A stretch of 64,000 nt of DNA from the NCBI RefSeq assembly GCF_000711875.1, contig NZ_JONM01000001.1, positions 163,934 to 227,933 on the forward strand. Reading direction: 5' to 3'. The translations under genes were made by a program, and so were the position numbers. Shown piece by piece: positions 45,059-63,925 of this stretch (its first letter is position 1; each line of letters starts with the position of its first letter). Source of the DNA: Andreprevotia chitinilytica DSM 18519 (GTDB lineage: Bacteria > Pseudomonadota > Gammaproteobacteria > Burkholderiales > Chitinibacteraceae). Below the pieces are notes generated by a model. The model made no database searches. It was not told the DNA's origin and saw only the letters and a list, made by a program, of their open reading frames with translations.

Positions 45059-45082
45059 GGCAGCGGTGGTGTCACCCTTTGC

Positions 45083-45162: not shown

Positions 45163-45391
45163 ATTCCCCCAAGGCCAACGCGGAAACATCGTTGTAATTA
45201 TCAATAAATAAGAATCAAATAATCTACAAATTGATTATTTTTTTGCGAAGCGTGTGTGGCTAAAGTACGTCCATCGATGTCGCATTGCAACACAACCGAA
45301 CGACATCCTTCACGTGATGCCAAGTCAACGGCCAACCGCCTCTCATCTCGGCATCACGCGCTCTGACCACAAGACAGAAAGGATCATCATC

Positions 45392-45942: not shown

Positions 45943-46206
45943 ATGGCAAAGCGTCTGCAAGACCAAACGGCGGTGTTCATCGTGCGGATCTGGTGCGAGG
46001 AGCGCGAAATCGAAAATGCCGCCGGTGAATGGCGTGGCGTTGTCGAGCATGTGCGTTCCAATCAGCGCATGTTTTTCCGCACGCTGGAAGGTATGTCGGC
46101 CTTCATGCAGCCCTTTCTTGAGGAAGTCGGCATCGCGCCGCAGGACCGCTGGTGGGAAGGGGTGGAAGACAGCCTTTCGCTGCCGCCGGGCGAGCAGGTG
46201 GAGTGA
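45943..46206 (+). CDS. hypothetical small protein (first gene of protease-rich cluster)
   Basis: ATG 45943 inside GTG ORF 45904..46206. Confidence 0.4.
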   Translation: MAKRLQDQTAVFIVRIWCEEREIENAAGEWRGVVEHVRSNQRMFFRTLEGMSAFMQPFLEEVGIAPQDRWWEGVEDSLSLPPGEQVE

Positions 46207-49200: not shown

Positions 49201-50283
49201 ATTTCGATCAGTGATCAGGATATTGCCGCCAAGGTGCCGGCCATCGATGCCTACCGCAACGGCCTGTGGCCGCGTGACCGGCAACCGCTGGCGGATGTGT
49301 GGAACCTGATTCCCGAGCCGCCGCAAAGCTACACGCTGGATGGTTTCCGGCAATTGCTCGCCAGCAGCGGCCCGCTGTGGGTCGATTCGCAATTTCCACA
49401 AGGCGGGCACGTGGTCGTGGTGGTCGGGATCGAAAGCGGCGGGGCGGATGATGGTTCCGATACCACCGTCTACATCCATAACCCCGATCCCGGCTCTGGC
49501 CAGCGGGTGAAGATGTCGTGGCAGCAATTCGTGCAGTACTACGAAGGCCGCGTCAGTACCGAAGGCAGCACGCTCAGCGCGCAATTGCTCCATGCCAACG
49601 GTTTGGGCGGTCGCACGCCGGCCACGGTGGCACCGTTCGCGCTCACGCTATCGGCCAATCAGGCCAATACGCTGGACAAGACCCGGCATCAGCGCACCCG
49701 TCCCGCTCGTCCCCAGCAAACGCCACAATCGCCCCAGCATGGCGGGGCGCGGGTCAACGGTTTGACGGCAGCGGGCTTGACGGTGAGCGGCACGGATGCT
49801 GAAACGACGATTTCGCCGTCCCACGTGCCCGGCACGACCATGAGTGCGGTGACCGGCAGCGTTGGCAACTTGTCCTGGCGGCTGGAGCAGTTGCAGGGCT
49901 TCAAATCGCCAGCCGGCCAGCCGAGTGTCACCTCCGCCGCGCCGGATCACGCCGAAGTCCCGCTCGACGATTGGCCGCGCCTGTCCGATGGCCCGGTGCC
50001 GATCAAATTGGCAGTGCGCTGGCAGCACAACGGCAGCGCGCTCGGCAATGTCACGGTCGTGCGCACCGATCAGGCCGACAGCCTGCCGTACCAGCTGCAG
50101 GTGGAAGCCGCCATCGACGACGACACGCTGACCTATCCGCCGCAAGCCCCGCGCTATGCCGCGCTGAACGTGACCATCACCTACCGCTTCAGCAACCTGC
50201 CGGATGGCGCGGCGACTGCCGTCACGCAGCTCAAGCTGTATGGCAACGGCACGTTCGAACGCCACGGTTCCTGGCTGAAATAG
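46225..50283 (+). CDS. 1352-aa multi-domain protease
   Basis: Layout: N-terminal domain, P/A/Q linker, trypsin-like S1 (TAAHVV; GASGAPVYY), permuted papain/NlpC-like module (SFYCSQLVLEAY), two C39-like Cys-peptidase repeats (TGSCWAAAAAMIVGWRD; SGMSCWAASASMVVGWRD), C-terminal domain. Confidence 0.75.
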   Translation: MTVAQQEIGMALIRANRETVDDRFSIVGFTVRTGPNPLFEVAVASDPELFKPENRAKRGRNNFYSSRAAGAMRARRGEAVYLIPPDVLTHFVGNKRLYFGLATYAEGNRAEPTSVQAPTTGSPFINIAGLTGRGLRRLTSSPTDVSSSYGAARGEDSSLAWGGDRGGAQGGNVPTTASPDTRRAAADGRAAQSPANGAVNGSSAVNGHTASSAASRTTPSAPDAHYDDGFDHRLWQQAPQQAPQQSPTQQAPAPAPTASAPAAPTASSSAPGPAHAQSLAYNGKPTARPLDLIVPSNQPTLWDQLGFLRDSLSWFFGVTDTTVYPQHAICQIRRPTAGGGDEHVGTAFYVGRNRLLTAAHVVEGETNLIVVPGRNDTAEPFGRYTVAASSFRIPASRNTANHDFDIAVLDNTPQAAPNGRWFDLMEELLTSQPSPIIVCGYSSQSRRVPQINNLINENKQHLHSGRIQTVQDNTFSYDIQTLAGASGAPVYYITDNGGQPQIHLVGVHVSGLSDTENQGTRLTEAKIAWIEGRTTTLGLATARAQSIPLDPGAGGQSIGVAALQAGDIIVSTTDHATSYLIRGGSISAVSHAMLYIGDGKVVEAVGQGVIEHPLADAISDAILAVAFRYPNLDDMHRQAVVSYARSQVGLPYNYAGAAYAGYRIWNPITRIGEWIGQRLSVAPENAGSFYCSQLVLEAYARAGVALTTEAPDVSTPGDIVQLTHSVLSYVGHLVASDSSFALALATTDPIQPSPYRRRIRHPARALDDSSFRVYWGDVPFQQQSSTGSCWAAAAAMIVGWRDSTCISDQDIAAKVPVVDAYLNGLWPQDRHVLADVWNLVAEPPQSYTLDGFRQLLANSGPLWVATRTRSGGGHILLVIGMESDGAADGSDTNVLIYDPWPGSAGRQRMRWLDFITRYEGRATSTGGVMQPQILHADGTQGRQQATAAPFGLVSALGTPFSVFWSDVPYTAQTSGMSCWAASASMVVGWRDRISISDQDIAAKVPAIDAYRNGLWPRDRQPLADVWNLIPEPPQSYTLDGFRQLLASSGPLWVDSQFPQGGHVVVVVGIESGGADDGSDTTVYIHNPDPGSGQRVKMSWQQFVQYYEGRVSTEGSTLSAQLLHANGLGGRTPATVAPFALTLSANQANTLDKTRHQRTRPARPQQTPQSPQHGGARVNGLTAAGLTVSGTDAETTISPSHVPGTTMSAVTGSVGNLSWRLEQLQGFKSPAGQPSVTSAAPDHAEVPLDDWPRLSDGPVPIKLAVRWQHNGSALGNVTVVRTDQADSLPYQLQVEAAIDDDTLTYPPQAPRYAALNVTITYRFSNLPDGAATAVTQLKLYGNGTFERHGSWLK

Positions 50284-50304: not shown

Positions 50305-51423
50305 ATGAACCCGCGCCTCGTCCCGCCGCCACCACCCACCCAGGGTGGAGCGGCGACTGCGCAAGCCTTGAACGCCGTCGACATGCTGTCCCAGCGTCTG
50401 GGCGGCAGCCAGAGCGACGGCAGTAACAGCGCAGCTGCGCCAACGCCGAGCCCCGCAGCACCCGTACCCGCGCCGGCACCGACGCCAGCCACCACCACCT
50501 CGCCCAAGCAGCCGGCCACGGAAACCATCGCCCACCGCACTGGCGCAATGGTCAACGAGATCGATTTCCCCGGCTTTGTGGCCGGTCTGGTGCATGGCAC
50601 TTTCGATGCCATCGTCGATGCCTCGATCCGGCAGATGGAAAGCTTCTCCGGCCTGGTGTCGGCGGTCGCCAAGACCGTCGACCAGTTCACCGAGGAAAAC
50701 GTCACGCTCAATCAGGCGCGGGACTGGCTCACCAGCCACTATCCCGGCGACGTGCATCTGGTGCTGTCCAGCGACCCGGCCATCGGCCCGCAACTGGCTC
50801 CGGCGCGAGAAGGCTTGTCCCCGGCGTGGCTAGCGGACTTCGATCTCGAAGGGAACGAACTCACTACTGAGCTGTTGGAGAACCAGTTGCTGCCTATCGT
50901 GCGCAGCCGCACCGGTGCGGATCGCCAACAACTGCTGGCAACGATGGTGCTGCTCGGCATGAACCGCGTGGCGGTCAAGGATGGTTCGATTTCGGCCAAG
51001 GTGATGTTCCGCGCCAGTGCGGAGGATTCCGCCAAGGTGTCCTACGCCACCAGCAACGACCCGCAAGGCGTCGCCAATTGGGGCGAGCGGGGCAGCCTGT
51101 CTTATAGCGGCGGCGCCAGCACGATGGTGTCCACCCTGGGTGTGAACGCGCAGAACGATTCATCGATCAAGACCGATCTGCTGGGCGAAGTGAAGATCAA
51201 TTTCGTCAGCGAAACCTTGCCGCTCGACCGCCTGATGGATCAAGCCAAGATCGCGCTGCTGCAACGCAATTCCCGCGTGGCGGAAACCGCCAACCGGGGT
51301 TTGAATGCGCCTGCCCCAGCCGCCGCGCCAGCACCACAAGCCGCATTGCCACCGGCCGCTGCGCCGGTCGCAACACCGACCGCCCCGGCCCCCGCCGCAG
51401 TACATGAAGGGAGGCCAGCCTGA
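50305..51423 (+). CDS. unknown family, paralog A (372 aa): conserved helical core + beta segment + Pro/Ala-rich tail
   Basis: shares FPxFVxGL(I/V)xG(V/T)FxxIVx(S/A)SIxQMExxxxLV, RQQLLATMV(M/L)LGxNR(I/V)(V/A)VxDGxIxAKV, E(V/I)(K/R)(I/V)NF(K/V)S(D/E)(Y/T)LP(L/M) with 57983, 59369, 61717 genes. Confidence 0.7.
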   Translation: MNPRLVPPPPPTQGGAATAQALNAVDMLSQRLGGSQSDGSNSAAAPTPSPAAPVPAPAPTPATTTSPKQPATETIAHRTGAMVNEIDFPGFVAGLVHGTFDAIVDASIRQMESFSGLVSAVAKTVDQFTEENVTLNQARDWLTSHYPGDVHLVLSSDPAIGPQLAPAREGLSPAWLADFDLEGNELTTELLENQLLPIVRSRTGADRQQLLATMVLLGMNRVAVKDGSISAKVMFRASAEDSAKVSYATSNDPQGVANWGERGSLSYSGGASTMVSTLGVNAQNDSSIKTDLLGEVKINFVSETLPLDRLMDQAKIALLQRNSRVAETANRGLNAPAPAAAPAPQAALPPAAAPVATPTAPAPAAVHEGRPA

Positions 51424-51860
51424 TGATCCGCGAACTCTCCGCCGTGCTGCTGGAAATGCACAACGCGCTGCAGTCGGAACTCAACCTGGCTCGCGACGCT
51501 GGCGTGCCGCTGTTGCTCGATAGCGTCGAGCTGACCTTGCCGATGCAATTCCAGAACGTGTTTGCCGATGGCCAATGCCTGCTGTGCGCCGACGTGCCGC
51601 GCACGCTCGATCCGGGGGGCTTTGATTTGCCGCTGGGGCGGATGCATGCGCGGTGGGAGCGGGTGGATGGGGAAGATGAGGATTCAACACCCAGCTTGGG
51701 CATTCCCCCCTTCCTCGAAGGGGGGGGAGGGGGGATTTCTGCGCCTTCTCAAGTTGCCACTGCATCTGAACTTGGCACTGTGTCGAAATCCCCCCCACCC
51801 CCCTTCACAAAGGGGGGAGTAACAACGTTCGCTCCAGCAAGGAGGCCCGGCCATGAGTAA
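51423..51860 (+). CDS. hypothetical protein; 3' third of ORF is occupied by a REP/MITE copy
   Basis: ATGA overlap with upstream gene; REP family B 51703..51830 lies inside ORF so true C-terminus uncertain. Confidence 0.4.
   Translation: MIRELSAVLLEMHNALQSELNLARDAGVPLLLDSVELTLPMQFQNVFADGQCLLCADVPRTLDPGGFDLPLGRMHARWERVDGEDEDSTPSLGIPPFLEGGGGGISAPSQVATASELGTVSKSPPPPFTKGGVTTFAPARRPGHE
51703..51830. repeat. REP/MITE-like element, family B (second copy of 27468..27565)
   Basis: ccccccttcctcgaaggggggg ; ggggggatttct..gcgcc..tcgaaatccccccc. Confidence 0.6.
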
Positions 51861-52794
51861 TGCCATCCCTCCACTGTTGCAGCAACAAGGCGTGCCGTTC
51901 GATGTCTTCATCCAGTCGCTGACCGATCAGCTCGACAAGGCGCAGGCGTCGATGGCGCTCAAGGCGCGGGTCGGCAAGTTGCCGCTCACCTTCGCGGTCA
52001 AGGAATTGACGCTCGATCTGAAGGCCTATGTGCAGATCGTCGATGACGACATCTATTTCCGCCCGGCAGCACCCGGTGATACCGATGCCAGCACCGTCAA
52101 ATTCAGCCTCACCACCATCACCAAGCCGATGATCGAAGAGAACTCGGTCGATTTCGCCGCGCAGCAAAAGCACTTCGATGTCAGTCTCAAGGACGGGCTG
52201 GGCGACAGCATCAATGCCGATGAGCAACGCCGGCTGGAGCGCATGGGCGTGCAGACGATGTCGCAGCTCAATGATTTGCGCAGCCGCGCCGGCGATGACG
52301 TGATCGCCCGCATCACGCGCGTGCCGGTCAATCGCCTGCAAGCCGCATTGATGCGCGCCGCCGCGCCGCAGGTCATGCATGTCGAACCACACCTCAATGC
52401 GCCGAGCGGGGATGCGGCGATGGCGCCTGGCAATGGCCAACTCAATGGTTCATTGATGGGTTCCTCGGTGGGTCCAATGGTCTCTGCCAACCTTAACCCG
52501 CAATCCGTGCCGCCGAATTCGCCGCTGTTGCGTTTGCGTGGCCTCAATTTGCTGCGGGGCGGGCGGCCGCCGCAGGTGCAAGCCGCAGGCGGCAATGTGC
52601 CCGTGCTGGCCGCCAGCGACAGCGAATTGCTGATCTCGCCGCATGCCATGCAACTGGGCTGCGAAGCGGAGCTGACCTTTGATGACGGCGCACGCTGCAC
52701 GGCGCAGTTGCCGCCGCCGGTCCCGCCGCCGATCATTCAGCCCTCGGCACAAAGTCGCCCGCAATCCCCGTCACAGGGGGCTCGCCATGTTTAG
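51853..52794 (+). CDS. hypothetical protein (313 aa), Pro-rich C-terminus
   Basis: ATG 51853 (overlaps previous ORF end by 8 nt); overlapped at 3' end by S8 gene start. Confidence 0.5.
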   Translation: MSNAIPPLLQQQGVPFDVFIQSLTDQLDKAQASMALKARVGKLPLTFAVKELTLDLKAYVQIVDDDIYFRPAAPGDTDASTVKFSLTTITKPMIEENSVDFAAQQKHFDVSLKDGLGDSINADEQRRLERMGVQTMSQLNDLRSRAGDDVIARITRVPVNRLQAALMRAAAPQVMHVEPHLNAPSGDAAMAPGNGQLNGSLMGSSVGPMVSANLNPQSVPPNSPLLRLRGLNLLRGGRPPQVQAAGGNVPVLAASDSELLISPHAMQLGCEAELTFDDGARCTAQLPPPVPPPIIQPSAQSRPQSPSQGARHV

Positions 52795-54328
52795 CGACTA
52801 CGTGCCTTTTGACCCGATGCCCGAAGGCGGCCCGCACTTTGGCGGGCGGATGCGTCGCCGCCTGTTGCTGCGGCTGCCGCTGGGCGAAGTGCCGGATCAT
52901 CTGCCGACGTTCTCTGACTGCCTGCGCCGCATGACCAGCTTTGCCGACACCATCGATGGCGGCGTGGTCGACCGGCTGATCCGCCACCATTGCGGCGGGG
53001 CGCGCACCTGCCGGCTGCACAGTGCCGCGCGTTATGCCGGCTCCCACCTGCGTGTGCCGATGCCCGCACGGGCTTACGACGATCTCGAAATGCTGAGCGG
53101 TGTAGCGCGGGTGTTGCGGCTGGAATTGCAATCGGATGACGGATTCGAGGCGCTGGTCGATGCGCTGCGCCAGCTCGCCAGCGTGGAAGACGTCTCGCCC
53201 AACTATCTCTGCACGCTGTCGCTGGAAGTGCCGCAAGCCGCACCAGACACCCTGCGTGACGATGCCGGCTGGAGCACGCGCCGCATGATCCGCACTGCGG
53301 AAGCGCTCGGCTACGAGCCGGGCGATGAGGGCGTCATTGTCGGGCTGCTCGATACCGGCGTGGCCCAGCAACATCGCGAACTGGCCGGCAAGCTGCGGCG
53401 CGGCTTCGATGCCGTTGCGCTCGATGCCAGCGCCGTTGGCGGCGATTTGCGCCTGATCGGCCCGCATCACCCGGACAACGAGCCGGACGATGATGTCGGC
53501 CACGGCACCGGCTGCGCCGGCATCATCGGCGCATTGGGCGACAGCATGCCGCCGGGGTTGGCCGGGCAGAGCACCTTGCTACCCGTGCGCGTGCTGGGCA
53601 CGGCCGTTGGCAAGAACCACAAACCGGTCGGTATCGGCTCGATTGCCGATATCGATCGCGGCATGAAACGGCTGATCGATCTGGGCGCCAAGGTGATCAA
53701 CATGAGTTTTGGCACGCCGGAATCGATGCTGGGTGAACACGACCCGCCGCCGCATACCGAAGTGGTCAATTACGGCTTGGCACGCGGCTGCATCCTGGTG
53801 GCGGCCAGCGGTAATTCCGGCGCGACGGAGCGCTTTTTCCCGGCCGCACACCCCGGTGTGATCGCTGTCGGTGCCGTCGATGCCGATGGCCGGTTGAGCC
53901 ACTTCTCCACCCGTGGCGAGCACGTGGCGCTATGCGCACCGGGGGAGCGGATCGAGACCAGCGGGATCGTGGTCGTGGAGAGCGGCAACGCGGTTGGCGG
54001 CAGTCAAGACAGTGCACCGGTCTACCAATGGGCCACCGGCACCAGCTTTGCCGCGCCCTTTGTCACGGCGACGGCCGCGTTACTGGTGGCCCGCGCCGCT
54101 CGCCGCGCCTTGCCGCTCGACCCGGCTACCGCCCGCGATGTCCTCATCCGCTCGACCCGTCCCTTCGCGACTACCACCGATGGGGCCGGCAATGGCGTGC
54201 TCGATGCGCTGGCTGCGTTGCGTTTGCTCGATGACCAGCTCGATACGCTGCTGGATGAGGACGATGTGACGTGGGAAGACGTCGCGTCGCCAACGCCGGA
54301 TGAGAAAGGAGGGCGGCCCAATGTTTGA
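52787..54328 (+). CDS. subtilisin-like S8 serine peptidase with ~190-aa N-terminal extension
   Basis: ATG 52787; catalytic Asp LLDTGV, His GHGTGCAGII, Ser GTSFAAPFV. Confidence 0.85.
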   Translation: MFSDYVPFDPMPEGGPHFGGRMRRRLLLRLPLGEVPDHLPTFSDCLRRMTSFADTIDGGVVDRLIRHHCGGARTCRLHSAARYAGSHLRVPMPARAYDDLEMLSGVARVLRLELQSDDGFEALVDALRQLASVEDVSPNYLCTLSLEVPQAAPDTLRDDAGWSTRRMIRTAEALGYEPGDEGVIVGLLDTGVAQQHRELAGKLRRGFDAVALDASAVGGDLRLIGPHHPDNEPDDDVGHGTGCAGIIGALGDSMPPGLAGQSTLLPVRVLGTAVGKNHKPVGIGSIADIDRGMKRLIDLGAKVINMSFGTPESMLGEHDPPPHTEVVNYGLARGCILVAASGNSGATERFFPAAHPGVIAVGAVDADGRLSHFSTRGEHVALCAPGERIETSGIVVVESGNAVGGSQDSAPVYQWATGTSFAAPFVTATAALLVARAARRALPLDPATARDVLIRSTRPFATTTDGAGNGVLDALAALRLLDDQLDTLLDEDDVTWEDVASPTPDEKGGRPNV

Positions 54329-54349
54329 TTGCCGTGCCATCCGCAACCC

Positions 54350-54380
54350 CGTAGCCCGGACGACGCCGTCGGCCGGGGTT
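54350..54380. repeat. REP family C half-site
   Basis: cgtagcccggacgacgccgtcggccgggg. Confidence 0.45.
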
Positions 54381-54430
54381 TGCGCCACCAATCACGCCGC
54401 TGTACCTGCTGATATCGCCGGAGGTTCGTC

Positions 54431-56437
54431 ATGACCAACCCCAAAAAGAAACCGGGCGCAGACGCGGCAGAGAACACGCCGGCCAATGCCGATCCACCCT
54501 CCGCCGGGCCAGCGCCTCCAGCGGAACAGGTGCCCAGCGCGCCAGCCGCTGCAGCCAGTGCCACACCCGGCAGCAGCCAACCGAACGCCCCGCCCGGCGG
54601 GAAACCGCCGCCGGCAAGCCCGGCGGATCGCAGTAACAGCAATATGGAAACCCAAAGCGGTGGAGGGAATGGAATCATGGAAGCACCCAAACAAGTGTTG
54701 TTGTTCGTCGATCTGAGCCAGTCGGAATTTCTCGCCAGGGCGCGTTTGCGCGAGCGGCGGCAGCTGCTGGAGAACATTGCCACCCACCGCAAGGGCGGGT
54801 TGGGCAGCGATGAATCCGACGAATTGACGGAAAAGCGGTTGCTGCTGGGCAGCAATACCTCGGTCGATCCGTTCTTCCTCGCCATTGTGGACGGGCATGC
54901 CGGTTCGCAAGCCGAAGGCGAGAACGAAGCCAAGATGGTGCATGGCGTACTGCCGACTTCGCAGCCGCGCTGGTATCGCGAGCATCCGAACTGGAACGGC
55001 GAAATGATCCGGGTGCAAAACGGCCCCGATATCGCCGTGGCCGCGGCCGAGCTGGAACTGGTCGCGATTGCAGGCCTGATGGAGATGGACAACTTCCTTG
55101 ACCCGGCCAACCCGCGCTTCGTGCAGCAGGTTTCGGTGGCACAGGGGGAGTATCGCGCCAATCGGGCCTTGTTCCAGCGGGTGTTCGAGCTGCTGGTGCT
55201 CAACAGCGTGCCGGTGACGCTGGATAGCCAGATCGCGCTCAAGCTGGTCGATCCGGCCGCGACGGATGCGTTGCACAACGCCAATATCACTGCCGATATG
55301 CTCAAAGCAGTGATTGCGCTCAGCGCCAAGCAACTGGGGGCGGTGGTGCGGCAGATCGCCGCCGATGGCATGACCGCCAACGACCGCCAGTTGCCGGATC
55401 GCGTGCGGGTGGCGCTGGAGAACGTCTCCGGCATGGACCAGGGCGCGCCGCCGTCGGCGATCGAAATCGATTTGCCCGATCTGGAAGCCCAGTCGGACGT
55501 CGAGATCGTCGAATCCAATCTGCATGCGGTGCAGGCGCTGTATTTCTCCTACATGCTCGAAGAGCTGCGGCTGTTCCAGACGGTGGAGAAACTGGTCGAT
55601 CTGTTCCGTACCGGCATGCTGCCGATCGGCAAGGGCGGCGCGGGCGATTACCTCTACAGCTACCTGAAGCGTTCCAGCGAGCGGATGAACGAGAGCGAGC
55701 GGCGCGATCTGTATATGCGGGCCTTCGGTGCGCCCGGCGGCGATCCGAACACCAATATGCCCAATCGCGAGTTCAACGAGCTGTGGCTGCGTTTCGTCTC
55801 GGCCGTGTCGTCCTATGTGCGTCAGTTCACCGTCGACAACATGCTGCGCAGCCAGGCGCCCGGCATGGTCAGTCAGGAACAGGTACGCAAGGCCGGCCGC
55901 GATCTGGCCGCCAATCTGTCCTTGCACGGCTACGGCATCGCCTACTTCGCCGCCACCGAGCTGCAATCGACCATCCGCGAGTTCATCGGTGTGCTGTCGG
56001 ATCAGGACATCAAGGGCTCGTTCGGCGCCCGCGATATGTGGCAGGTGGTCGAGCAAGTCTCTGCCAGCTACCTGGGCGGCCCGCGCAACAGCGTGCGTTA
56101 CCGCACGCAGGCCCAGTCCGGCGCGGTGATCATCCGCTGGCTGGCCAAGAACGCCCGCAATCTGTCGTCCAGCTATGTGAACGACGTGATCGCCATCGAC
56201 GTGCTGCGCAGCCCGCAGCTACGCAGCCTCGGCGGCGGCAAGGCGACGGTGGACCCGACCGATTGGGATCTCGTCAACGCTTGCGAGCAATGGCTGGCCG
56301 TGGGCGGCATCCAGGAGGCGCGCATCGACGAGTACTCGCAGCCGACCGAAGCGCCGAATACCACCTCGAAGCCGATTGCCTTGCCATCGGTCGCGCAGGA
56401 TGTGCTCGATTCGGTGGGGATCAGTATTGGGGCGTAG
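54431..56437 (+). CDS. hypothetical protein (668 aa) with Pro/Ala-rich low-complexity N-terminus
   Basis: ATG 54431; no recognisable motif. Confidence 0.55.
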   Translation: MTNPKKKPGADAAENTPANADPPSAGPAPPAEQVPSAPAAAASATPGSSQPNAPPGGKPPPASPADRSNSNMETQSGGGNGIMEAPKQVLLFVDLSQSEFLARARLRERRQLLENIATHRKGGLGSDESDELTEKRLLLGSNTSVDPFFLAIVDGHAGSQAEGENEAKMVHGVLPTSQPRWYREHPNWNGEMIRVQNGPDIAVAAAELELVAIAGLMEMDNFLDPANPRFVQQVSVAQGEYRANRALFQRVFELLVLNSVPVTLDSQIALKLVDPAATDALHNANITADMLKAVIALSAKQLGAVVRQIAADGMTANDRQLPDRVRVALENVSGMDQGAPPSAIEIDLPDLEAQSDVEIVESNLHAVQALYFSYMLEELRLFQTVEKLVDLFRTGMLPIGKGGAGDYLYSYLKRSSERMNESERRDLYMRAFGAPGGDPNTNMPNREFNELWLRFVSAVSSYVRQFTVDNMLRSQAPGMVSQEQVRKAGRDLAANLSLHGYGIAYFAATELQSTIREFIGVLSDQDIKGSFGARDMWQVVEQVSASYLGGPRNSVRYRTQAQSGAVIIRWLAKNARNLSSSYVNDVIAIDVLRSPQLRSLGGGKATVDPTDWDLVNACEQWLAVGGIQEARIDEYSQPTEAPNTTSKPIALPSVAQDVLDSVGISIGA

Positions 56438-56467
56438 AGGGCCGCAACGAGACCGTGAACAGGCTCT

Positions 56468-56575
56468 TAGTCCCCTCGCCCCCTTTAGGGGGAGAGGGTT
56501 AGGGAGAGGGGGCGGTTGATCAACCAGCCACCCTCACCCCCAGCCCCTTTCCCAAAAATGGGCGAGGGGAGAAAA
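56468..56575. repeat. REP cluster family A (two copies)
   Basis: tcccctcgccccctttagggggagaggg ... ccctttcccaaaaatgggcgaggggag. Confidence 0.55.
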
Positions 56576-56606
56576 GCAGGATCGGCGGCTCACAGGAGAC
56601 TCAGCC

Positions 56607-57659
56607 ATGCCAGACCTCTACAACACCCGACAGCCAATGGCGCGTCATGTCGAGCGCTCCATCACCAATGCCGCGCGCCATTTGCACGTGAGCAATCCGC
56701 TCAATTTCGTGGGCGACATGGTGAAGCGCACCTTCGCGCTGCCGGACGACGATTCGTCCTACGGCAACAACGCGCTCACGCCCGGCGCAGTGCCGTTCGA
56801 GCCGTCGTTCTCGGAGCAAGAGCCGAACGCGCTGCGTTTCACCATTGAACCGCTGGGGCCGCACGCGTCGCCGTCATCGCGCCGCGACGAAGCCACCCGC
56901 GAAATGCGGCGGCTGATCAACGGCGTCTTCGGGCGCGATGCCTTGCGCTGGTTCGATACCCGCAGCGAAGAATGGCGCGGCATGAATGGCCTGAGCTGGA
57001 TGAACTACGGCGCGTGGTTCGGCAGCGCCTTCGATGAGGACGGCCTCTACGCCGCCAAGATTTACTACGAGCTGCTGCCGTCGCAAATCGATGCGCTGTC
57101 GCAAGGTACGGCGCGGATCACGCGTTTGGCCTGCGCGATCATGCCCAGCCTGATGCCGATCTTTACCTCGATTGGTTGCAAGCGCGAGGCCGGCAGCCAG
57201 CGCGTGACCTTTCTGCACCGGGGGCCGTTGTCGCTGACTGATCTCAGCCCGCTGATGAACCAGCTGGGCATCGGCCACCAGTTGCCAGGCCTGATGCGCG
57301 TGGTCGGGCTGGCGCTGGGCGGCCGCTTTGAATTGCCACATGGCACGGTGCTGCTTGGCCTGCGCGAGACGCACGAAGGGGTCGAGCTGAAACTGGAAAT
57401 CCTGCTTGCAGCGCTACCGGACGTGCCGGATGGTTTTCTCGATCTGGTGCGACTTGGTTTGGCGGAACGGCCACGCCAACTGGGGGCGCTGGAGCGCTGG
57501 CTGGATGCGTTCGGGGTGGATGAGGCGGGCACGGAAGGGAATTTCTCGGTGCTCAGCATCCGCGTCACGCCGCGGACTTCGGCGCGGATCAGTTTGTATG
57601 TGCGGCCGCTGGAGTTCGAGATTGGCGGGCAGATTGAGGAAAGCCGGCAGATGGCTTGA
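56607..57659 (+). CDS. hypothetical protein (350 aa)
   Basis: ATG 56607 after REP; no motif recognised. Confidence 0.5.
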   Translation: MPDLYNTRQPMARHVERSITNAARHLHVSNPLNFVGDMVKRTFALPDDDSSYGNNALTPGAVPFEPSFSEQEPNALRFTIEPLGPHASPSSRRDEATREMRRLINGVFGRDALRWFDTRSEEWRGMNGLSWMNYGAWFGSAFDEDGLYAAKIYYELLPSQIDALSQGTARITRLACAIMPSLMPIFTSIGCKREAGSQRVTFLHRGPLSLTDLSPLMNQLGIGHQLPGLMRVVGLALGGRFELPHGTVLLGLRETHEGVELKLEILLAALPDVPDGFLDLVRLGLAERPRQLGALERWLDAFGVDEAGTEGNFSVLSIRVTPRTSARISLYVRPLEFEIGGQIEESRQMA

Positions 57660-57784
57660 GCGGGCAACGGCAAAACCGCAAATCCTGAACCACAGAGGGC
57701 ACAGAGGTTCACAGAGAAAACCAACCTCAAATCACACGTAAGAACAAGGAGCGTGCGCAGAGAGCGGATGAAAAACGAGGTTTT

Positions 57785-57860
57785 CTGTAGGAGCGAGCTT
57801 GCTCGCGATGGGCGCGCATCAATTCACGATGCAATCGCGAGCAAGCTCGCTCCTACAGAA
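57785..57860. repeat. REP-like palindrome, family D
   Basis: ctgtaggagcgagcttgctcgcgatgg..atcgcgagcaagctcgctcctacag. Confidence 0.65.
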
Positions 57861-57982
57861 ACCTTCTTGCTGGCCGCTTGGTTTTCATCTGTGTTCTCTG
57901 TGCCCTCTGTGGTTCGAGGTTTGGGTTTTGAAATTTCGGTTTTTGCTTGAGTAATGCCCCGCATCGCGCAAGGAAACACATC

Positions 57983-59353
57983 ATGACCATGAATACCGCC
58001 GCCTCCCGCTATCCCGCGCCACCCGCACCAGCCCGGGCGCAGGCCGTCGCCGTCAGCCAGGAAACGCAGGATCAGGCCCGCATCAGCGTGCGCCAACTGC
58101 TGGAGCGCAGCCCGGCCTACGGCAGGCTCGATCACGGCACGCAACGGCAGCTGGCGCATGATCTGGTGAAAATCAGCAGCTATCTGGCCGAGCCGGAAGG
58201 GCAACGCCTCGCCCCAAGCCAGACCGCCCCGGCGGTGCGTGCGCTGGCCGAGAATGTCTCGATGCAAACCGATAGCAGCAATACCAACAGCGACGGCAAA
58301 TTCGTGGCGCAGGGCGCACGTGAAGGGGCGGCGGTGGCTGGCGCGTTGCTGAACGCGATCAACTTCCCCGAGTTCGTGTCTGGCCTCATCAATGGCGTGT
58401 TCCACTCCATCGTCACCTCGTCGATCCAGCAGATGGAGGCCTACGCCAAGCTGGTGGCGGATGTCTCCAAGAGCCTGAACCAGTTCCGCGATGACAACGT
58501 GTCGGACAATCAGGGGCGTGATCATCTGGTCGATCAGTATCCCGATCTGTTCCAGATCACCGTCAACAACGACTTCGGCGGCGGCTTCGGCAGCGATTCC
58601 GGTGGTCCGCCACCGGGGCCGCGTTGCACCCTGCGCGATGGCGTGGACGAGCAAAGCGCGCTGAGCCGCGTCAATCAGATGCCCATCGATGGCGGCCCGC
58701 TGCGCAGTCTGGACGACGACACCGTCGAGCAAAAGCTGGTGCCGGCCGCCCGTACACAACTGGCCACCAGCCGCCAGCAATTGCTGGCAACGATGGTGAT
58801 GATGGGCATCAACCGCATCGTGGTGACCGACGGCAAGATCTCCGCCAAGGTCATGTATGACTTCAAGGCGCAGGACAACATGAAGTTCCGCCAGAGCGCG
58901 CAGCGCTTCGATTACGGCGACCAGTACAGCACCACCAGCAGTGGCAACATGGAAAGCAATACCCAGGGCGCGCAAAGCTCCAGTTCGTCCGGCAGCGATG
59001 GCTCGTCGCAACAGAGCAATCGCGATGCGAGCTATTACTCGAAGGGCACCTACAACACCACCTCGCAGCCGGTGCTCAAGCTCGCCAGCGCCTCGCAGAC
59101 CGATATCAATGCCGACCTGAGCACCAAGGCATCGCTGTCCGGCGTGGTGGAAGTCAATTTCAAGAGCGATTACCTGCCGCTGGACAAGATGGCCGACCCG
59201 GCCGCGATTGCCGCCATCCAGATGAACGCCCAGCCGGGCATGGCGAAAACGACTGCCGGTACGCGCGCGCCTGCGCCCGCAGCAACCCCGGCTGCCGCAC
59301 CAGCACCCGTACCCGCGCCTGCCGCTACACCGGCCGCCCCGGCTGCGCACTGA
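57983..59353 (+). CDS. unknown family, paralog B (~456 aa)
   Basis: ATG after AAGGA RBS (MTMNTAAS) inside ORF 57947..59353; same conserved blocks as 50305 gene; S/Q/N-rich insert; ends PAAPAAH. Confidence 0.65.
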   Translation: MTMNTAASRYPAPPAPARAQAVAVSQETQDQARISVRQLLERSPAYGRLDHGTQRQLAHDLVKISSYLAEPEGQRLAPSQTAPAVRALAENVSMQTDSSNTNSDGKFVAQGAREGAAVAGALLNAINFPEFVSGLINGVFHSIVTSSIQQMEAYAKLVADVSKSLNQFRDDNVSDNQGRDHLVDQYPDLFQITVNNDFGGGFGSDSGGPPPGPRCTLRDGVDEQSALSRVNQMPIDGGPLRSLDDDTVEQKLVPAARTQLATSRQQLLATMVMMGINRIVVTDGKISAKVMYDFKAQDNMKFRQSAQRFDYGDQYSTTSSGNMESNTQGAQSSSSSGSDGSSQQSNRDASYYSKGTYNTTSQPVLKLASASQTDINADLSTKASLSGVVEVNFKSDYLPLDKMADPAAIAAIQMNAQPGMAKTTAGTRAPAPAATPAAAPAPVPAPAATPAAPAAH

Positions 59354-59368
59354 CGGAGGAACGGCATC

Positions 59369-60724
59369 ATGCACAGCGCCACGCCCGGTTATGGGCGGTC
59401 TGATCCCCCATTCGGTCCCCCCTCTGATCCCCCGTCTGATCCGAAGGGGAGGAGGAGCGAGCACCTGCCTGACCACCGGCCGGCGTGGCTGGATGACGAC
59501 ACGCTCGCTGTCGTGCGGCCACAGGTGCGCAAGTTGCTGGAAGCCTCGCCGGGTTTTCAGGCGCTGGCCGATGAAAAGAAGCGCGATATCGCCCGGCAGA
59601 TGGTCAATGTCGCCGCCTATATGGCGAACCCGGATGGCCTCGCCAAGCGCGAGCTGACGCCGGGCCAGAACGTGGTCGAGCAGCCCGGTGTGCTGGCCCG
59701 CCAACAGGATGCGGTGGACGATGCCAAGGCTGCCGCATCCAAGGAAGTCGGCAACTTTGCCGGCAAGGATTTCCAGGCCGGTGCGGTGCAGCAGGGTGTA
59801 CAGCAGTTCGGCGAGCTGGTGCAGAAGGTGGACTTCCCGCTGTTCGTGGCCGGGTTGATCCATAACGTGTTCGAGGCCATCGTCAATTCGTCCATCAAGC
59901 AGATGGAGGCCTACGGCAAGTTACTGGCGAGCGTGTCGCAATCGGTGGCCGATTTTGCCCGCGACAATATTTCGCAAAACAATGCGCGGGATTGGCTGAT
60001 GCAGAAATATCCGGATCAGCTCGGGCTGGATACCTCGTCGGCCGATAGCGGCGGCAGCAATGGCCAGCCTGCCACGCCACGCCTGACCGCCAGCGGTGAC
60101 GATCCGTCGACCTTCCTCAAGACGCTGAGCACCGAGTTCGGCATGAGCAAGCCGGTGGATGATCTATCCGACCCGGAGCAGGAAGGGATGCTGGTGCAGG
60201 CGGCACAGGTGCAGATCGCCAAGAGCCGGCAGCAGTTGCTGGCATCGATGGTGATGCTGGGCATCAACCGCATCGTCGTGACTGACGGCATGATCCACGC
60301 CAAGGTGATCTTCGACCTGAAGGCGAGCGATCAGGCGCAACGGCAGGCGCGGGCATCGTTGTATGACCGCAATGCCAGCCGCAACGTCAATACCAGTGTG
60401 GCCGGTGGCGGTTGGGGCTTCTTCGGTGCAGCGACCGCCAACCAGAATGTGCAGGACCACGTGACGACGGTGCAGTCGTCGGTGGACGAAACATCCGAAT
60501 CGAAGGCGGAAGTGAAAGCCAACCTGACCGGCGAGGTGCGGGTGAATTTCAAATCCGACTATCTGCCGATGGAAAAGATGGCGACGCCGCAGATGATCGC
60601 GTCGATCCAGGGCAATGCCACGCCGTACGATCCGAACAACCCGAACGCGCACAGGCCGGGTGCGGCACCTGCCGCTGCGCCAGCTGCAGCCGCCCCGGCA
60701 CCGCAACCGGCTGCCGCGCATTGA
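59369..60724 (+). CDS. unknown family, paralog C (451 aa)
   Basis: GGAGGA RBS + ATG 59369; conserved blocks; ends QPAAAH. Confidence 0.7.
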   Translation: MHSATPGYGRSDPPFGPPSDPPSDPKGRRSEHLPDHRPAWLDDDTLAVVRPQVRKLLEASPGFQALADEKKRDIARQMVNVAAYMANPDGLAKRELTPGQNVVEQPGVLARQQDAVDDAKAAASKEVGNFAGKDFQAGAVQQGVQQFGELVQKVDFPLFVAGLIHNVFEAIVNSSIKQMEAYGKLLASVSQSVADFARDNISQNNARDWLMQKYPDQLGLDTSSADSGGSNGQPATPRLTASGDDPSTFLKTLSTEFGMSKPVDDLSDPEQEGMLVQAAQVQIAKSRQQLLASMVMLGINRIVVTDGMIHAKVIFDLKASDQAQRQARASLYDRNASRNVNTSVAGGGWGFFGAATANQNVQDHVTTVQSSVDETSESKAEVKANLTGEVRVNFKSDYLPMEKMATPQMIASIQGNATPYDPNNPNAHRPGAAPAAAPAAAAPAPQPAAAH

Positions 60725-60736
60725 AGGCGGGTCGCT

Positions 60737-61720
60737 ATGGGCACGCAGATGCACCCCGACCACGACGACCGCATTGCCGCACGGCTGCATCGCGCCCTCG
60801 GCTTCGCGCAGTGGCGGCTTGGCTTGCGGCCCGCGCCGGCCGGTGCTCAGGCGCTGGATGCGCTCGACCCGGTGGATTTACCACCTGATGTCTCTGACCC
60901 GCAGCAGATCGCCTCGCTGGAAGCCGCCGGACCGTTGTATCTGGCGCGTGAACTCGAATCGGCTCAGCTTTTGCCGGCCGTGGAGCTGATTACCGGCTTG
61001 TTCACCGGCGGCACCATCAACCAGTCGCTCGGCAATGTCGGCCAGAAATTGCTCGGCTTCTGGCGCACCCGCCACCAGCGGCTTGGCCCGACCGAGCGGC
61101 AAACACTGTTCGCCCACGTATTCGAGGAGCCGGCGTTTACATCATTGATGCAGGCCCTGTGCACGCAAATGGCCAGCACGATGAACGCATGGCAGCCCCC
61201 CATCTGGCAGCCGCATGGCTATGGGCAGATTGGCGTCGGGCTGGCGGGGATTGGCGTATCGCAAGCGGCGCAGGCGGTGGCGGATTTTCTGGCGGGGCGG
61301 CTGGCCGGCATGGCGACCTACGCCGCCGGTGAATTGATACAGAACATCCGCGACGGGGTGGAAGTCCTGAAAGCGCCGGAAGTGCAGACTGCCTTCAACG
61401 TGCGCGGCATGTGGGCGCTGGTGGCCCTGGTGGCGAATCAGCGCGGGCTGGATGCCTCGCAAATCCATGCCCATGTCGAACGCGGGCAGGCAGGCCAGCT
61501 GATCCTGACCTGGTTGGCCCAGGCCGCCCACACCAACAACTACACGCTCGATCCGCACGATGCGCGGTCTCAGGCGGTGATCAATGCGGCGGCGACCTGG
61601 CTGGTGCAAGTGCCCGGTGATACTCAGGTCGGCAGCGCCCAGACCACGGTCACGACGAGCACCGCGCCCCCGCCCGCAGTGCCGGCCGTGCCGTCGATGG
61701 TGGGAAGCATCGGCGTATGA
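60737..61720 (+). CDS. hypothetical protein (327 aa)
   Basis: ATG 60737; ATGA overlap with paralog D start. Confidence 0.5.
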   Translation: MGTQMHPDHDDRIAARLHRALGFAQWRLGLRPAPAGAQALDALDPVDLPPDVSDPQQIASLEAAGPLYLARELESAQLLPAVELITGLFTGGTINQSLGNVGQKLLGFWRTRHQRLGPTERQTLFAHVFEEPAFTSLMQALCTQMASTMNAWQPPIWQPHGYGQIGVGLAGIGVSQAAQAVADFLAGRLAGMATYAAGELIQNIRDGVEVLKAPEVQTAFNVRGMWALVALVANQRGLDASQIHAHVERGQAGQLILTWLAQAAHTNNYTLDPHDARSQAVINAAATWLVQVPGDTQVGSAQTTVTTSTAPPPAVPAVPSMVGSIGV

Positions 61721-63141
61721 ACGCGCCGCTGCAGCCGGCCGGCATCGCTGCAACGCCGCCGGGGTGGCTGCGTCAGGCGGTGCGCGATCATTTGCAGAGT
61801 ACGAAAAGCTATCAGGACATGGCGGCGGACAAACGCCGTGAACTGGCGCATGCGATGGTGCGGGTGTCGCAAACGGCGGCGCAACTGATCGATGAAGAAC
61901 GCCGGGCGAGTGAACATATCGAGGCGCAGCAACCCCGCAAGCCGCCCCAACCGCTGGCACGTGCGCAAGACGCGCCGGGCTTCGGCGCGGCGACCGATCG
62001 TTTGGCATCGACCACGCAAAGCGTGCTGAACGCGGTGTCGTTTCCGCGCTTCGTCACCGACCTCATCAATGGCGTCTTCCGCGCCATGCTCGATTCCACC
62101 TCGCAGCAGATGCAGATGTATGTGCAACTGCTGAACAACGTCTCCGCCTCGCTGGATGGTTTTTCCGGTACCCAGTTCAGTAACGACGGGGCGCGGCATT
62201 GGCTGGCGGATCACTTCCCGGATGCATTCCAGATCGACAACGCCGATTCCACCGACCCGGACAATCCGCCCGAACTGAATTTGCGCGACGGGGGGCGCAT
62301 GCCGGATCAGGAGGCGCTGCGGACCGTATTCGGCATGGAGCCGACCGACACCATCGACGCTGGTAATCCGGAACAACTGGTGCCGCTGGCCCGCCGCCAG
62401 ATGGCGCGGCAACGGCAGCAGATGCTCTCCACGATGGTGATGATGGGCATGCAGCGCATCGTGGTGGATAGCGGCAAGATCAACGCCGCCATGCACTTCC
62501 ACATCGATACGCGCAGCGCAGCGCAGAACGATAGCAGCAACAGTTTCAATTTCCAGAACAAGGTGTCGGCCAGCGGCAGCTTCGGCGTCGGGCCGTGGGG
62601 GGCGAGCGCCTCGGTGGAAAACACCATCGGCTATGTCTCGACGCAGCGCTCGCAGAGCACCGAGGAGATGAACACCGATCTGGATCTGAGCTCGTCAGTG
62701 GAAATCAATTTCCGCAGCGATTACCTGCCGCTCAACCGCATGGCGGCACAGGCACAGGCTGACCGCATCCGCGCCAATACCATCAACCCGGATGCGGAAG
62801 CCGCAGCGTTGGCGACCGAGCGTCAGGCCCGGCATGCCTCGGACGTGCAGTCTGATACCGCGCGCCGGCAGACGCTCACCGATGCGAGCGCTGCGCCGCG
62901 GCCGTCGACGCCGCCACCACCGGCAGCAGGCGCGCCACGTCCAAGTCCTGCGACTACGGGCCCGACGCCGACACCAGCGGGTGGCCCCGCGCCAACGAGC
63001 GGACCACCGCCGACCGGCAGCCCAGCGTCAACCGGTGGCCCGACCCCGACGGGTAGCCCCTCAGCAACGCCCGCTCACTCGCCGACCAGCCCGTCGCCTA
63101 CGCCATCAGCAACGCCTGCGCCAGTGACGGGGGCGCATTGA
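61717..63141 (+). CDS. unknown family, paralog D (474 aa) with long Pro/Thr/Ser/Gly-rich tail
   Basis: conserved blocks FPRFVTDLINGVF, RQQMLSTMVMMGMQRIVVDSGKINA, EINFRSDYLPL; ends VTGAH. Confidence 0.7.
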   Translation: MNAPLQPAGIAATPPGWLRQAVRDHLQSTKSYQDMAADKRRELAHAMVRVSQTAAQLIDEERRASEHIEAQQPRKPPQPLARAQDAPGFGAATDRLASTTQSVLNAVSFPRFVTDLINGVFRAMLDSTSQQMQMYVQLLNNVSASLDGFSGTQFSNDGARHWLADHFPDAFQIDNADSTDPDNPPELNLRDGGRMPDQEALRTVFGMEPTDTIDAGNPEQLVPLARRQMARQRQQMLSTMVMMGMQRIVVDSGKINAAMHFHIDTRSAAQNDSSNSFNFQNKVSASGSFGVGPWGASASVENTIGYVSTQRSQSTEEMNTDLDLSSSVEINFRSDYLPLNRMAAQAQADRIRANTINPDAEAAALATERQARHASDVQSDTARRQTLTDASAAPRPSTPPPPAAGAPRPSPATTGPTPTPAGGPAPTSGPPPTGSPASTGGPTPTGSPSATPAHSPTSPSPTPSATPAPVTGAH

Positions 63142-63144
63142 GCA

Positions 63145-63537
63145 TTACCAAGTCACCCGTAAGCCGGGCACCAAGGCCAGCTGGCTATCCGCGCTGACCA
63201 GCGTGGCATCCAGTGTCATGGCCGTCGCGCCGATCAAGCGATCGGCCGGGTCGCCATGCGGGAACTGGCCCCCTTGTGCAAGGGCAGCAACGGCGGGTGA
63301 GATCGGCAAGACCTTTAGCTTGAGCGCATCGACCAGATCATCGAGGAATGCTTGAGTCGGAATCGGCAGCTGGATACGGCCTTTTTCGGTCAGCATGGCG
63401 ATTTCCCACAGACTGATGTCGGCGCATCCCAGCGTGCCATTCGCTTTGCCAACCTCAATGGTTTGTGCGGCCACGGGGGTGAGCCGATCCGGTGCCAGTG
63501 CCCAGAACACCAAGGCATGGGTATCACAGATGATCAT
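63145..63537 (-). CDS. vapC: PIN-domain toxin VapC-like
   Basis: ATG 63537 (MIICDTHALVFW..), acidic PIN residues; overlaps antitoxin stop. Confidence 0.7.
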   Translation of the reverse strand: MIICDTHALVFWALAPDRLTPVAAQTIEVGKANGTLGCADISLWEIAMLTEKGRIQLPIPTQAFLDDLVDALKLKVLPISPAVAALAQGGQFPHGDPADRLIGATAMTLDATLVSADSQLALVPGLRVTW

Positions 63538-63787
63538 CGGTGCTGCCCCAGCCCGCATCGATAGGAGCAAGCAAATCGCCAACAACGGCTTTTGTGCGCA
63601 AGACGGCCAGCCGCTCTAGCGCAGCTTCCGAGTGATCCACTTCCGGCATCAGTCTGGCGACGACTTTGCCGTGAATGGTGATCTGCACTTCTTCTCCCGC
63701 CTGCACTTTGCCCAGATACAGCGGCAGGTGCTGGCGCAGTTGAGTCACATTGATTTGAAGCACGGTATTCACTTTCGATATGTACAT
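63524..63787 (-). CDS. Phd/YefM-family antitoxin
   Basis: LRQHLPLYLGKVQAGEEVQITIHGKVVARLMP typical Phd/YefM fold signature; AT-rich palindromic promoter region upstream (63780-63800). Confidence 0.65.
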   Translation of the reverse strand: MYISKVNTVLQINVTQLRQHLPLYLGKVQAGEEVQITIHGKVVARLMPEVDHSEAALERLAVLRTKAVVGDLLAPIDAGWGSTDDHL

Positions 63788-63925
63788 AAATTATGTACAT
63801 ATTAGGGCGATTTTTTGTGAACGTAAATCGGCGTGCCCTGCTATCGTGAGCGGGCGTAAGCAAGAACGGCTGGCTATGCGTTAGTCAGAAGAGACCGTGG
63901 TGATTTGGAAAGATCGGTGGATCAG

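Follow-up and report, generated by a model that had tools for sequence, protein, structure and literature searches.

Four paralogous genes in a conserved operon

The window analyzed in this study is a 64,000-nucleotide stretch of the genome of Andreprevotia chitinilytica DSM 18519 (contig NZ_JONM01000001.1, positions 163,934 to 227,933). It contains four paralogous genes, further referred to as ParA, ParB, ParC and ParD, which form the core of an autonomous operon of about 13 genes, evidently horizontally transferred. All four genes lie on the forward strand. ParA (50305–51423, 372 amino acids) is the shortest paralog, with a tail terminated by the conserved motif EG(G/K/R)x. ParB (57983–59353) and ParC (59369–60724) encode proteins of 456 and 451 amino acids, respectively, whereas the product of ParD (61717–63141, 474 amino acids) has the longest low-complexity tail. 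ParB, like the product of another operon gene, g07, shows 100% identity to an NCBI protein of Andreprevotia chitinilytica.

A first-pass annotation of the window had proposed that these four genes share three sequence blocks, and this proposal holds: all the open reading frames (ORFs) are present, and the MAFFT alignment of their products recovers a helical core (FPxFV...QM...ARDWL..YPD), a second block (RQQLLATMV..G.NRIVV.DG.I.A) and a third one (V.(V/I)NF.S(D/E).LP(L/M)). In this alignment, ParB–D are 28–37% identical to ParA. The most divergent pair, ParA and ParD, is recognized by BLASTP with composition-based statistics at E=6e-32, and the Par genes can be aligned even as DNA (60–79% in three segments). 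Hence the genes are true paralogs, and the shared blocks are not an artefact of GC composition. Homology to a known enzyme family, which had been named along with the compositional artefact as an objection to the proposal, was not observed for ParA–D: they match no family above the cutoff in Pfam-A, NCBIfam, PADLOC or PHROGs, and 96 diverse representatives of the Par family yielded only scattered sub-threshold matches in Pfam-A (DUF6683 in five members). An additional N-terminal helix (VR.LL..S..F..L....R..A..MV.V), earlier ascribed to ParB, ParC and ParD, is aligned in ParB and ParC, is weaker in ParD, and is missing from ParA.

The eleven genes from g01 to ParD retain identical order and strand in 40 of the 41 full-length loci, and start and stop codons of operon genes overlap. 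The exception is Cupriavidus necator A5-1, where only the genes from g07 to ParD are left, the Par ORFs are truncated or frameshifted, and the adjoining genes are housekeeping ones (fumarase, NADH-dehydrogenase-type); this locus looks like a decaying operon remnant. No conserved genes were found downstream of ParD across the compared loci. Given the strict synteny of the eleven genes and the absence of a conserved downstream gene, the block can be considered an autonomous module. Neither a tRNA integration site nor a promoter or terminator signal above chance was detected.

Two more genes belong to this unit, since they recur upstream of the eleven-gene block and bring its size to about 13 genes. 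The first one (43887–44966, forward strand, start codon uncertain) encodes a SARP-type regulator with winged-helix and BTAD domains (Pfam BTAD, 7e-23; Trans_reg_C, 7.7e-06). The second one (45943–46206, forward strand), directly upstream of g01, encodes a small conserved protein of 87 amino acids with the motif FIVRIW...EWRG.VEHV.SGQR.FF and without a Pfam family. This pair, the BTAD regulator first and the small gene second, directly precedes the g01 orthologs of Lysobacter spongiae and Hydrogenophaga; a metagenome contig retains a remnant of it. Orthologs of the small protein, 110–114 amino acids long, occupy the same position in loci L086 and L088, and the gene is also called in a Logan contig. 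In the Bradyrhizobium and Ramlibacter loci, BTAD homologs lie downstream of the block and are oppositely oriented.

The Par family is large. A word-indexed search yielded 1303 relatives; those with names are all annotated as hypothetical, and none has a precomputed Pfam domain. An exhaustive hidden Markov model search of 1.84 billion protein representatives produced 1961 clusters at 50% identity (E<=1e-3), and a pattern-based scan of GTDB species genomes identified 395 stretches with a relative. The best 80 of these 395 stretches come from alpha-, beta- and gamma-Proteobacteria, Acidobacteriota, Cyanobacteriota, Chloroflexota, Bacteroidota and Gemmatimonadota, the lineage labels being taken from record titles, many of them of metagenome-assembled genomes. 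The block itself is present in at least six phyla (Pseudomonadota, Acidobacteriota, Cyanobacteriota, Chloroflexota, Bacteroidota and Gemmatimonadota). No relative of the Par family was found in IMG/VR; this, along with the lack of PHROG matches, led us to reject a phage origin. Literature searches on the organism, on the domain combinations, on Trypco2 and on DUF3467 revealed no description of this operon. As far as the search tools tell, both the family and the operon are uncharacterized and unlike any known system.

Orthologous classes and predicted structure of the Par proteins

All four Par genes are present in order in 38 loci. For these loci, mean identity within a class, computed over 301 core columns, equals 0.69 for ParA, 0.70 for ParB, 0.70 for ParC and 0.67 for ParD, whereas identity between classes is 0.27–0.41. 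Judged by these values, ParA–D are four ancient orthologous classes. With identity of about 0.70 within classes against 0.27–0.41 between them, the operon spread only after the quadruplication, and each class is indispensable. The retention of four distinct classes in all 38 loci therefore suggests distinct, non-interchangeable roles in a single assembly.

The segments between the blocks had been described as hypervariable low-complexity inserts, and in this respect the first-pass annotation had to be corrected: in most columns of these segments, conservation among orthologs of the same class is 60–90%. The length of the loop between the two strands of the predicted hairpin (see below) is nearly constant per class, 81–98 amino acids in 26 ParB orthologs and 62–66 amino acids in 38 ParC orthologs. 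The loops are of a class-specific Ser/Gly/aromatic type; those of ParA and ParD can be aligned with each other, including the motif GV..WG. One loop column contains tryptophan in 76 of 121 diverse family representatives, and the following column contains glycine in 50. The presence of this tryptophan does not cleanly track that of the prenyltransferase encoded by g07, as ParB lacks it where g07 is present. Weak matches to hemagglutinin repeats (beta-solenoid) were observed in the loops of ParD and of the single Par homolog from Tolypothrix.

True variability is found in the leaders at the N-terminus and the tails at the C-terminus, foremost in ParD. Pro/Ala-rich tails are present on all four proteins, as had been reported. 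Tails of orthologs consist of alanine by 22–32% and of proline by 16–17%, and are almost devoid of aromatic or histidine acceptors (W 0.1%, Y 0.5%, H 0.7%). In other genomes, ParD tails are composed of (TG)n, (ATAP)n or (GS)n repeats, have hydrophobic Gly/Ala/Val-rich ends, or are replaced by a fused methyltransferase dependent on S-adenosylmethionine (SAM). The latter fusion, to a class-I enzyme (Methyltransf_25/31; CMAS-like), occurs at the ParD C-terminus in several lineages, namely in loci L002/L046 (Piscinibacter/Albitalea), L061 (Bradyrhizobium), L080 and L060 (proteins P0129, P0134 and P0150), and hints at a further modification step linked to ParD. The junction between the core and the tail carries a conserved motif in three classes: ALVQR..P in ParA, IQMNAQPGM.KT in ParB and IQGNATP.DPN in ParC. 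The latter two are located exactly at the core–tail boundary and are candidate cleavage sites.

From the variable segments and the termini, ParA–D had initially been read as structural subunits exposed on the surface, their loops being hypervariable and a C-terminal AH tag possibly serving for sorting or processing. ParB, ParC and ParD of Andreprevotia do end in AH, and proteases are encoded nearby. However, AH is the ending of only 2 among 151 orthologs, and A, R and P are the most frequent final residues; a conserved tag for sorting or protease recognition was thus rejected. The AH terminus is a local peculiarity, which at most reflects a weak tendency towards a basic C-terminus: the final residue is R, K or H in about 30% of the ParB, ParC and ParD orthologs, versus about 7% for these three residues across the tails. 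The described conservation of the loops within classes also contradicts this reading, and no secretion-system genes are present. A Kyte–Doolittle hydropathy scan of the eleven block products revealed no signal peptide and no convincing transmembrane helix, the sole 19-residue window above 1.6 being a marginal one in g06 (1.71). Since this applies to ParA–D and the seven other products alike, surface exposure is unsupported, while the description of ParA–D as paralogous non-enzymatic subunits stands. A flagellin-like surface filament was considered in this context as well and rejected, as neither a hypervariable middle part nor an export route is observed. Overall, sorting to the surface via an AH tag seems extremely improbable. 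A role of the neighboring proteases as processing enzymes, suggested in the same annotation, is a reasonable idea, because the S8 peptidase and multi-peptidase genes are invariant members of the operon.

The structure of ParB was predicted as a monomer with AlphaFold2 from an alignment of 43 sequences (predicted local distance difference test, pLDDT, 66; predicted template modelling score, pTM, 0.45). In the model, the helical core comprises helices 26–69, 110–185 and 245–273. It is followed by a beta-hairpin of two strands of about 20 residues each, 277–296 and 379–397 (pLDDT 57–77), carrying the conserved sequences RIVVTDGKISAKV... and V.VNFKSDYLP; the inter-strand loop is unmodelled, and the tail is disordered. 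According to hydrophobic moments averaged over orthologs, both strands have strong beta-amphipathicity in each of the four classes. Such strands are compatible with a barrel, either membrane-spanning or inter-subunit, and equally with a sheet packed on the core. No fold similarity was found between the Par proteins and solved pore-formers (gasdermin, aerolysin, MACPF/CDC, Pepco), nor between them and known filament, capsid, sheath or shell folds.

Partner genes, divergent versions and flanking elements

The most conserved protein of the operon is encoded by g07 (56607–57659, forward strand), with 70–76% identity in 119 listed homologs and 49–59% in orthologs from more distant lineages. It is a cryptic aromatic prenyltransferase of the DMATS-type ABBA group. 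Sequence matches are below the thresholds and cover residues 56–118 only (Trp_DMAT, PF11991, 18.9 bits at a cutoff of 25; TIGR03429, 17 bits at a cutoff of 163.85). The AlphaFold2 model shows a prenyltransferase barrel of repeated alpha-beta-beta-alpha units, as in the ABBA fold; both this model and that of ParB are of moderate confidence. Residues R77, K151, Y153, R199, Y331 and R333 are invariant, and K262 and R327 nearly so, all at alternating strand positions. From these positions, rather than from residue superposition, we infer the pattern of Arg, Lys and Tyr expected for the interior of a diphosphate-binding barrel. Unlike the DMATS/ABBA prenyltransferases CymD, FunA, FgaPT2 and NphB/CloQ, g07 scores below the Pfam and TIGRFAM cutoffs, and it differs both from these enzymes and from cyanobactin pathways in being located in a non-metabolic operon of structural-looking proteins.

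The first gene of the block, g01 (46252–50283, forward strand), encodes a leaderless multi-hydrolase of 1343 amino acids. According to Pfam and NCBIfam matches, it consists of a conserved N-terminal domain, a disordered linker, a trypsin-like S1 domain, a C92 domain (YaeF/NlpC-P60-type amidase), two C70 domains (AvrRpt2-like cysteine peptidase) and a C-terminal beta-rich domain. The composition varies among orthologs: Amidase_2, trypsin and C70 domains are found in Marilutibacter and Thiodictyon, and Amidase_2, C92 and C70 domains, with no trypsin one, in Burkholderia. Every g01 ortholog examined has C92, Amidase_2 or both, so that its constant feature is a predicted peptidoglycan-amidase module. 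By its domains, g01 is a predicted peptidoglycan hydrolase that would be unable to reach its substrate unaided. The gene contains a 285-nucleotide direct repeat (48533–48817 and 49100–49384, 78% identity), which corresponds to the tandem C70 domains. That the N-terminal domain might be reused for trafficking was considered and dropped; the homology search yielded only 14 short fragments and was uninformative.

The g05 gene (52787–54328, forward strand) encodes an S8 subtilase (Pfam Peptidase_S8, 5.6e-39) that also matches the PADLOC subtilase model. Its catalytic motifs DTG, HGTG and GTSFAAP are intact, and it is retained in 40 of the 41 full-length loci and in both divergent versions described below. 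The start of g05 is overlapped by g04 (51853–52794, forward strand), encoding a protein of 313 amino acids with a weakly Trypco2/Pepco-like N-terminus, a middle region and a C-terminal IPT/TIG domain. Trypco2 (PF19631) was matched in 2 of 24 g04 orthologs (E=0.0037 and 0.09), both below the Pfam cutoff; the Andreprevotia protein itself has no match. TIG was matched in five orthologs, one of which reaches 21.4 bits (cutoff 20.9). Trypco genes are known to neighbor those of trypsin-like peptidases (PMC7159879), and the position of g04, next to the S8 gene and near g01 with its trypsin and C70 domains, agrees with this rule and with the Pepco mechanism.

No family was assigned to the remaining partners. 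The product of g03 (51423–51860, forward strand) is about 84 amino acids long in other genomes, and the sequence pattern in an alignment of 25 orthologs indicates a helix followed by beta-strands; it matches no family and has no detectable relatives beyond its orthologs. In Andreprevotia it is longer by about 55 amino acids, the frame reading through an inserted palindromic repeat, which most orthologs lack, although a few have shorter, unrelated extensions. This repeat (CCCCCCTTCCTCGAAGGGGGG..., with C/G runs) occupies 51715–51830 at the junction of g03 and g04, and a related copy is found at 27514–27561; the spacer between g06 and g07 contains a different G/C-rich hairpin element (56440–56600). 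The g06 gene (54431–56437, forward strand, 668 amino acids) has no Pfam or PDB match, and its C-terminal half is paralogous to the product of g10 (60737–61720, forward strand, 327 amino acids; BLASTP E=2e-14). Neither g06 nor g10 is similar to any other family. Paralogy of g03 and g04, and of the Par family and g06/g10, was rejected by hhalign. Sequence-profile searches of PDB with g03, g04, g06 and g07 gave no match. In total, eight of the eleven core proteins match neither a curated family nor a solved structure by sequence.

Two divergent versions of the locus were found. A megaplasmid of Burkholderia pyrrocinia has the full eleven-gene layout at about 42% identity, preceded by genes for a sigma-54-dependent regulator and for a DUF3467 protein. 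A plasmid of Tolypothrix sp. PCC 7712 (locus L089, 136150–147368 of the record) carries a minimal cluster with a single Par homolog adjoined by a g06-like gene. It further encodes an alpha/beta hydrolase, an S8 peptidase, a leaderless PG_binding_1 coiled-coil protein, a g04-like TIG protein and three proteins of no recognized kind; no match to g07 was found in it. This mini-cluster may be the ancestral form. From the comparison of the versions, the recurrent core consists of a Par subunit, g06-like and g04-like proteins, an S8 peptidase and a peptidoglycan-directed protein having no export signal.

Several repeats and genes surround or interrupt the operon in Andreprevotia. Palindromes similar to repetitive extragenic palindromic elements (TGTAGGAGCGAGCTTGCTCGCGAT...ATCGCGAGCAAGCTCGCTCCTACA) are located after the SARP gene (44985–45058) and at 57784–57857. 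The latter copy is nested in an inverted repeat (57673–57706 and 57896–57929), and together they resemble a miniature inverted-repeat transposable element of about 257 nucleotides filling the g07–ParB spacer. A perfect (CACACCT)n microsatellite of about 12–15 units (45069–45177) lies between the regulator and the small conserved gene and might subject the operon to slipped-strand (phase-variable) control. A small ORF (45392–45595, 67 amino acids from the MKKLATVIATVGFLGAMGAAQA start) has a signal-peptide-like N-terminus and no Pfam match; it encodes the only secreted-looking product near the operon. Directly downstream of ParD, on the reverse strand, a VapC-type toxin with a PIN domain is encoded (63145–63585, Pfam 2.9e-09), and the ORF beyond it (about 63590–63860) is probably its partner antitoxin.

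Possible modes of action

We tentatively favor, as a possibility held with low confidence, a reading in which the four subunits ParA–D, non-redundant and of ancient divergence, make up one assembly that is pore-like, matured by proteases, possibly prenylated, and gives g01 access to the cell wall. ParA–D would be synthesized in the cytoplasm and join via their beta-segments into a hetero-oligomeric beta-barrel, a pore-like structure at the inner membrane. Its assembly or opening would be licensed when the S8 subtilase and the S1 and C70 domains of g01 trim the tails or N-termini. The prenyltransferase g07 may in addition lipidate the subunits and possibly anchor them. The leaderless g01 would thereby get to the cell wall, resulting in regulated lysis or holin-like release. 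A more specific form of this reading, a novel machine breaching the envelope, in which a barrel of a new fold built from the four paralog classes is anchored by loops prenylated at tryptophan or other aromatic residues in the DMATS manner, opened by protease and exports g01, appears quite unlikely.

The logic of this pore-like model is borrowed by analogy from Pepco modules, gasdermins and holin–endolysin systems, and the operon would be classified with none of them. Gasdermin is a cytoplasmic pore-former without a signal, held inactive by a C-terminal peptide and freed by an adjacent protease; it is also palmitoylated, which parallels the possible prenylation in the operon. Bacterial gasdermin–protease operons were reportedly described by Johnson and colleagues in Science in 2022. 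The operon differs in having no similarity to the gasdermin fold, a helical core, four obligatory paralogs instead of one gene, and a lipid-transfer enzyme and a peptidoglycan hydrolase within the unit. In phage-type holin–endolysin pairs and in the holin/peptidoglycan-hydrolase type 10 secretion system (T10SS), the peptidoglycan hydrolase has no leader and depends on co-encoded proteins that make a lesion in the membrane. The product of g01 is predicted to be such a leaderless hydrolase; moreover, several host genera of the operon are chitinolytic, as is Serratia, whose T10SS exports chitinase. In contrast to these systems, the block encodes no small transmembrane holin and, by the hydropathy scan, no convincing transmembrane helix, its hydrolase is a multi-protease of 1250–1550 amino acids, it comprises 11–13 genes instead of 2–4, and it is not found in viral contigs. 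ClyA-family multicomponent toxins (Hbl, Nhe, AhlABC/SmhABC) are encoded in operons of paralogous subunits of 350–450 amino acids, each with a helical bundle and a beta-tongue, which jointly form one pore. An operon of paralogous subunits with helical and beta parts is common to both, whereas those toxins are secreted onto foreign membranes and need no proteases, prenyltransferase or peptidoglycan hydrolase.

In Csp–SleC pairs, a subtilisin-like protease is encoded with a peptidoglycan-lytic zymogen and activates it. This clostridial germination module, with Csp belonging to S8 (mentioned in PMC11300598), is spore-specific and Gram-positive and has no Par-like subunits, so that the link is one of analogy only. 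In protease–Pepco (Trypco1/Trypco2) modules, small non-enzymatic proteins are encoded beside serine or cysteine peptidases (Kaur et al. 2020, PMC7159879; Evans et al. 2025, bioRxiv 10.1101/2025.11.14.688446). The Pepco beta-barrel pore is licensed by removal of a C-terminal tail; similarly, the Par tails look cleavable after the conserved junction, and g04 is a weak Trypco2 match. However, Pepco, with about 117 amino acids, is a stand-alone protein coupled to a sensor, whereas the Trypco2-like domain of the operon is sub-threshold, fused to TIG and accompanied by no sensor, and the dominant parts of the operon (ParA–D, g06, g10 and g07) have no counterpart in Pepco modules.

A number of observations weigh against a pore of this kind. 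The ParB model is monomeric and only of moderate confidence (pLDDT 66), and the amphipathicity of its strands would be explained just as well by packing against the helical core or by formation of a soluble polymer. The inter-strand loop spans 48–98 residues in the sequences measured, whereas hairpin tips of known beta-pore-forming toxins are far shorter. The operon encodes no membrane protein or NTPase. The loop tryptophan, a candidate prenyl acceptor, is absent from ParB and from the Tolypothrix homolog, and the best Trypco2 score (17.9 bits, the g04 ortholog of locus L040) falls short of the 24.2-bit gathering cutoff. Finally, identity of 50–70% across phyla is unusually high for toxins or defense effectors and fits a structural machine better.

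This last point leads to the main rival, a structural polymer, in which ParA–D, with g06 and g10 as partners or scaffolds, would form a non-membrane filament, sheath, shell or matrix matured by proteases, the peptidoglycan hydrolase opening the wall locally or freeing the assembly by lysis. Slow evolution across phyla and fixed subunit classes are features of structural machines, the disordered Pro/Ala tails and Ser/Gly-rich segments resemble linkers of structural proteins, a second paralogous pair (g06/g10) is interleaved with the Par genes, and the overlapping start and stop codons suggest stoichiometric co-translation; the weak beta-solenoid matches in the ParD and Tolypothrix loops point the same way. 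On the other hand, a polymer leaves the prenyltransferase unexplained, and the dissimilarity to known filament, capsid, sheath and shell folds, the lack of chaperone, usher or NTPase genes and the empty IMG/VR search count against it; we regard it as conceivable and rather doubtful. A protease-gated suicide or defense module, where g03 and the Pepco-like g04 would make the pore and ParA–D, g06 and g10 would serve as sensors, inhibitors or substrates, is unlikely. The Trypco2-like signal in g04, adjoining the S8 gene and near a trypsin domain, the match of the S8 peptidase to the PADLOC subtilase model and the PIN toxin just downstream in Andreprevotia agree with it. Meanwhile, that signal is below the cutoff in both orthologs out of 24, g03 and g04 share no profile similarity, no known sensor (STAND, vWA-MoxR etc.) and no PADLOC system match were found, the flanks are variable and are not defense islands, and dedicated SARP or sigma-54 activators and slow evolution are atypical of defense genes.

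The set of an ABBA prenyltransferase, an S8 peptidase and a SARP regulator is similar to that of a biosynthetic gene cluster and recalls the cyanobactin enzymes, the PatA/PatG S8 proteases and the PatF-type prenyltransferase. Accordingly, the Par proteins might be oversized precursors or scaffolds of a peptide made on ribosomes and modified after translation (RiPP), their loops or tails being prenylated, sometimes methylated, and excised as a secreted peptide. The SAM methyltransferase fused to some ParD orthologs and the variability of the C-terminal tails, reminiscent of core peptides, would also be explained in this way. Yet about 300 residues of each supposed precursor are 55–70% conserved and folded as helices and a hairpin, beyond the needs of a leader peptide. 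In addition, the tails offer hardly any Trp, Tyr or His acceptors, a transporter, a cyclase and repeats of a recognition sequence are all missing, and the Tolypothrix mini-cluster has no g07 match. A short precursor with recognition sequences, as in cyanobactin pathways, was rejected, since the operon has no short precursor peptide and the Par proteins are 370–470 amino acids long. Such a peptide pathway is therefore very improbable.

The unit is large, sharply bounded and widespread, and combines, under a pathway-specific activator, activities that are not known to work jointly: a DMATS-type prenyltransferase, an S8 subtilase, a multi-peptidase and peptidoglycan hydrolase having no export signal, a Pepco-like/TIG protein and two paralogous sets of structural proteins. 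If the subunits are indeed prenylated, this would be the first enzymatic prenylation of large proteins by a bacterial ABBA prenyltransferase, and the operon provides a concrete substrate context for an orphan branch of these enzymes. Its solution would probably reveal a new route of envelope crossing or lysis, a new chemistry of protein lipidation, or a new self-assembling structure.

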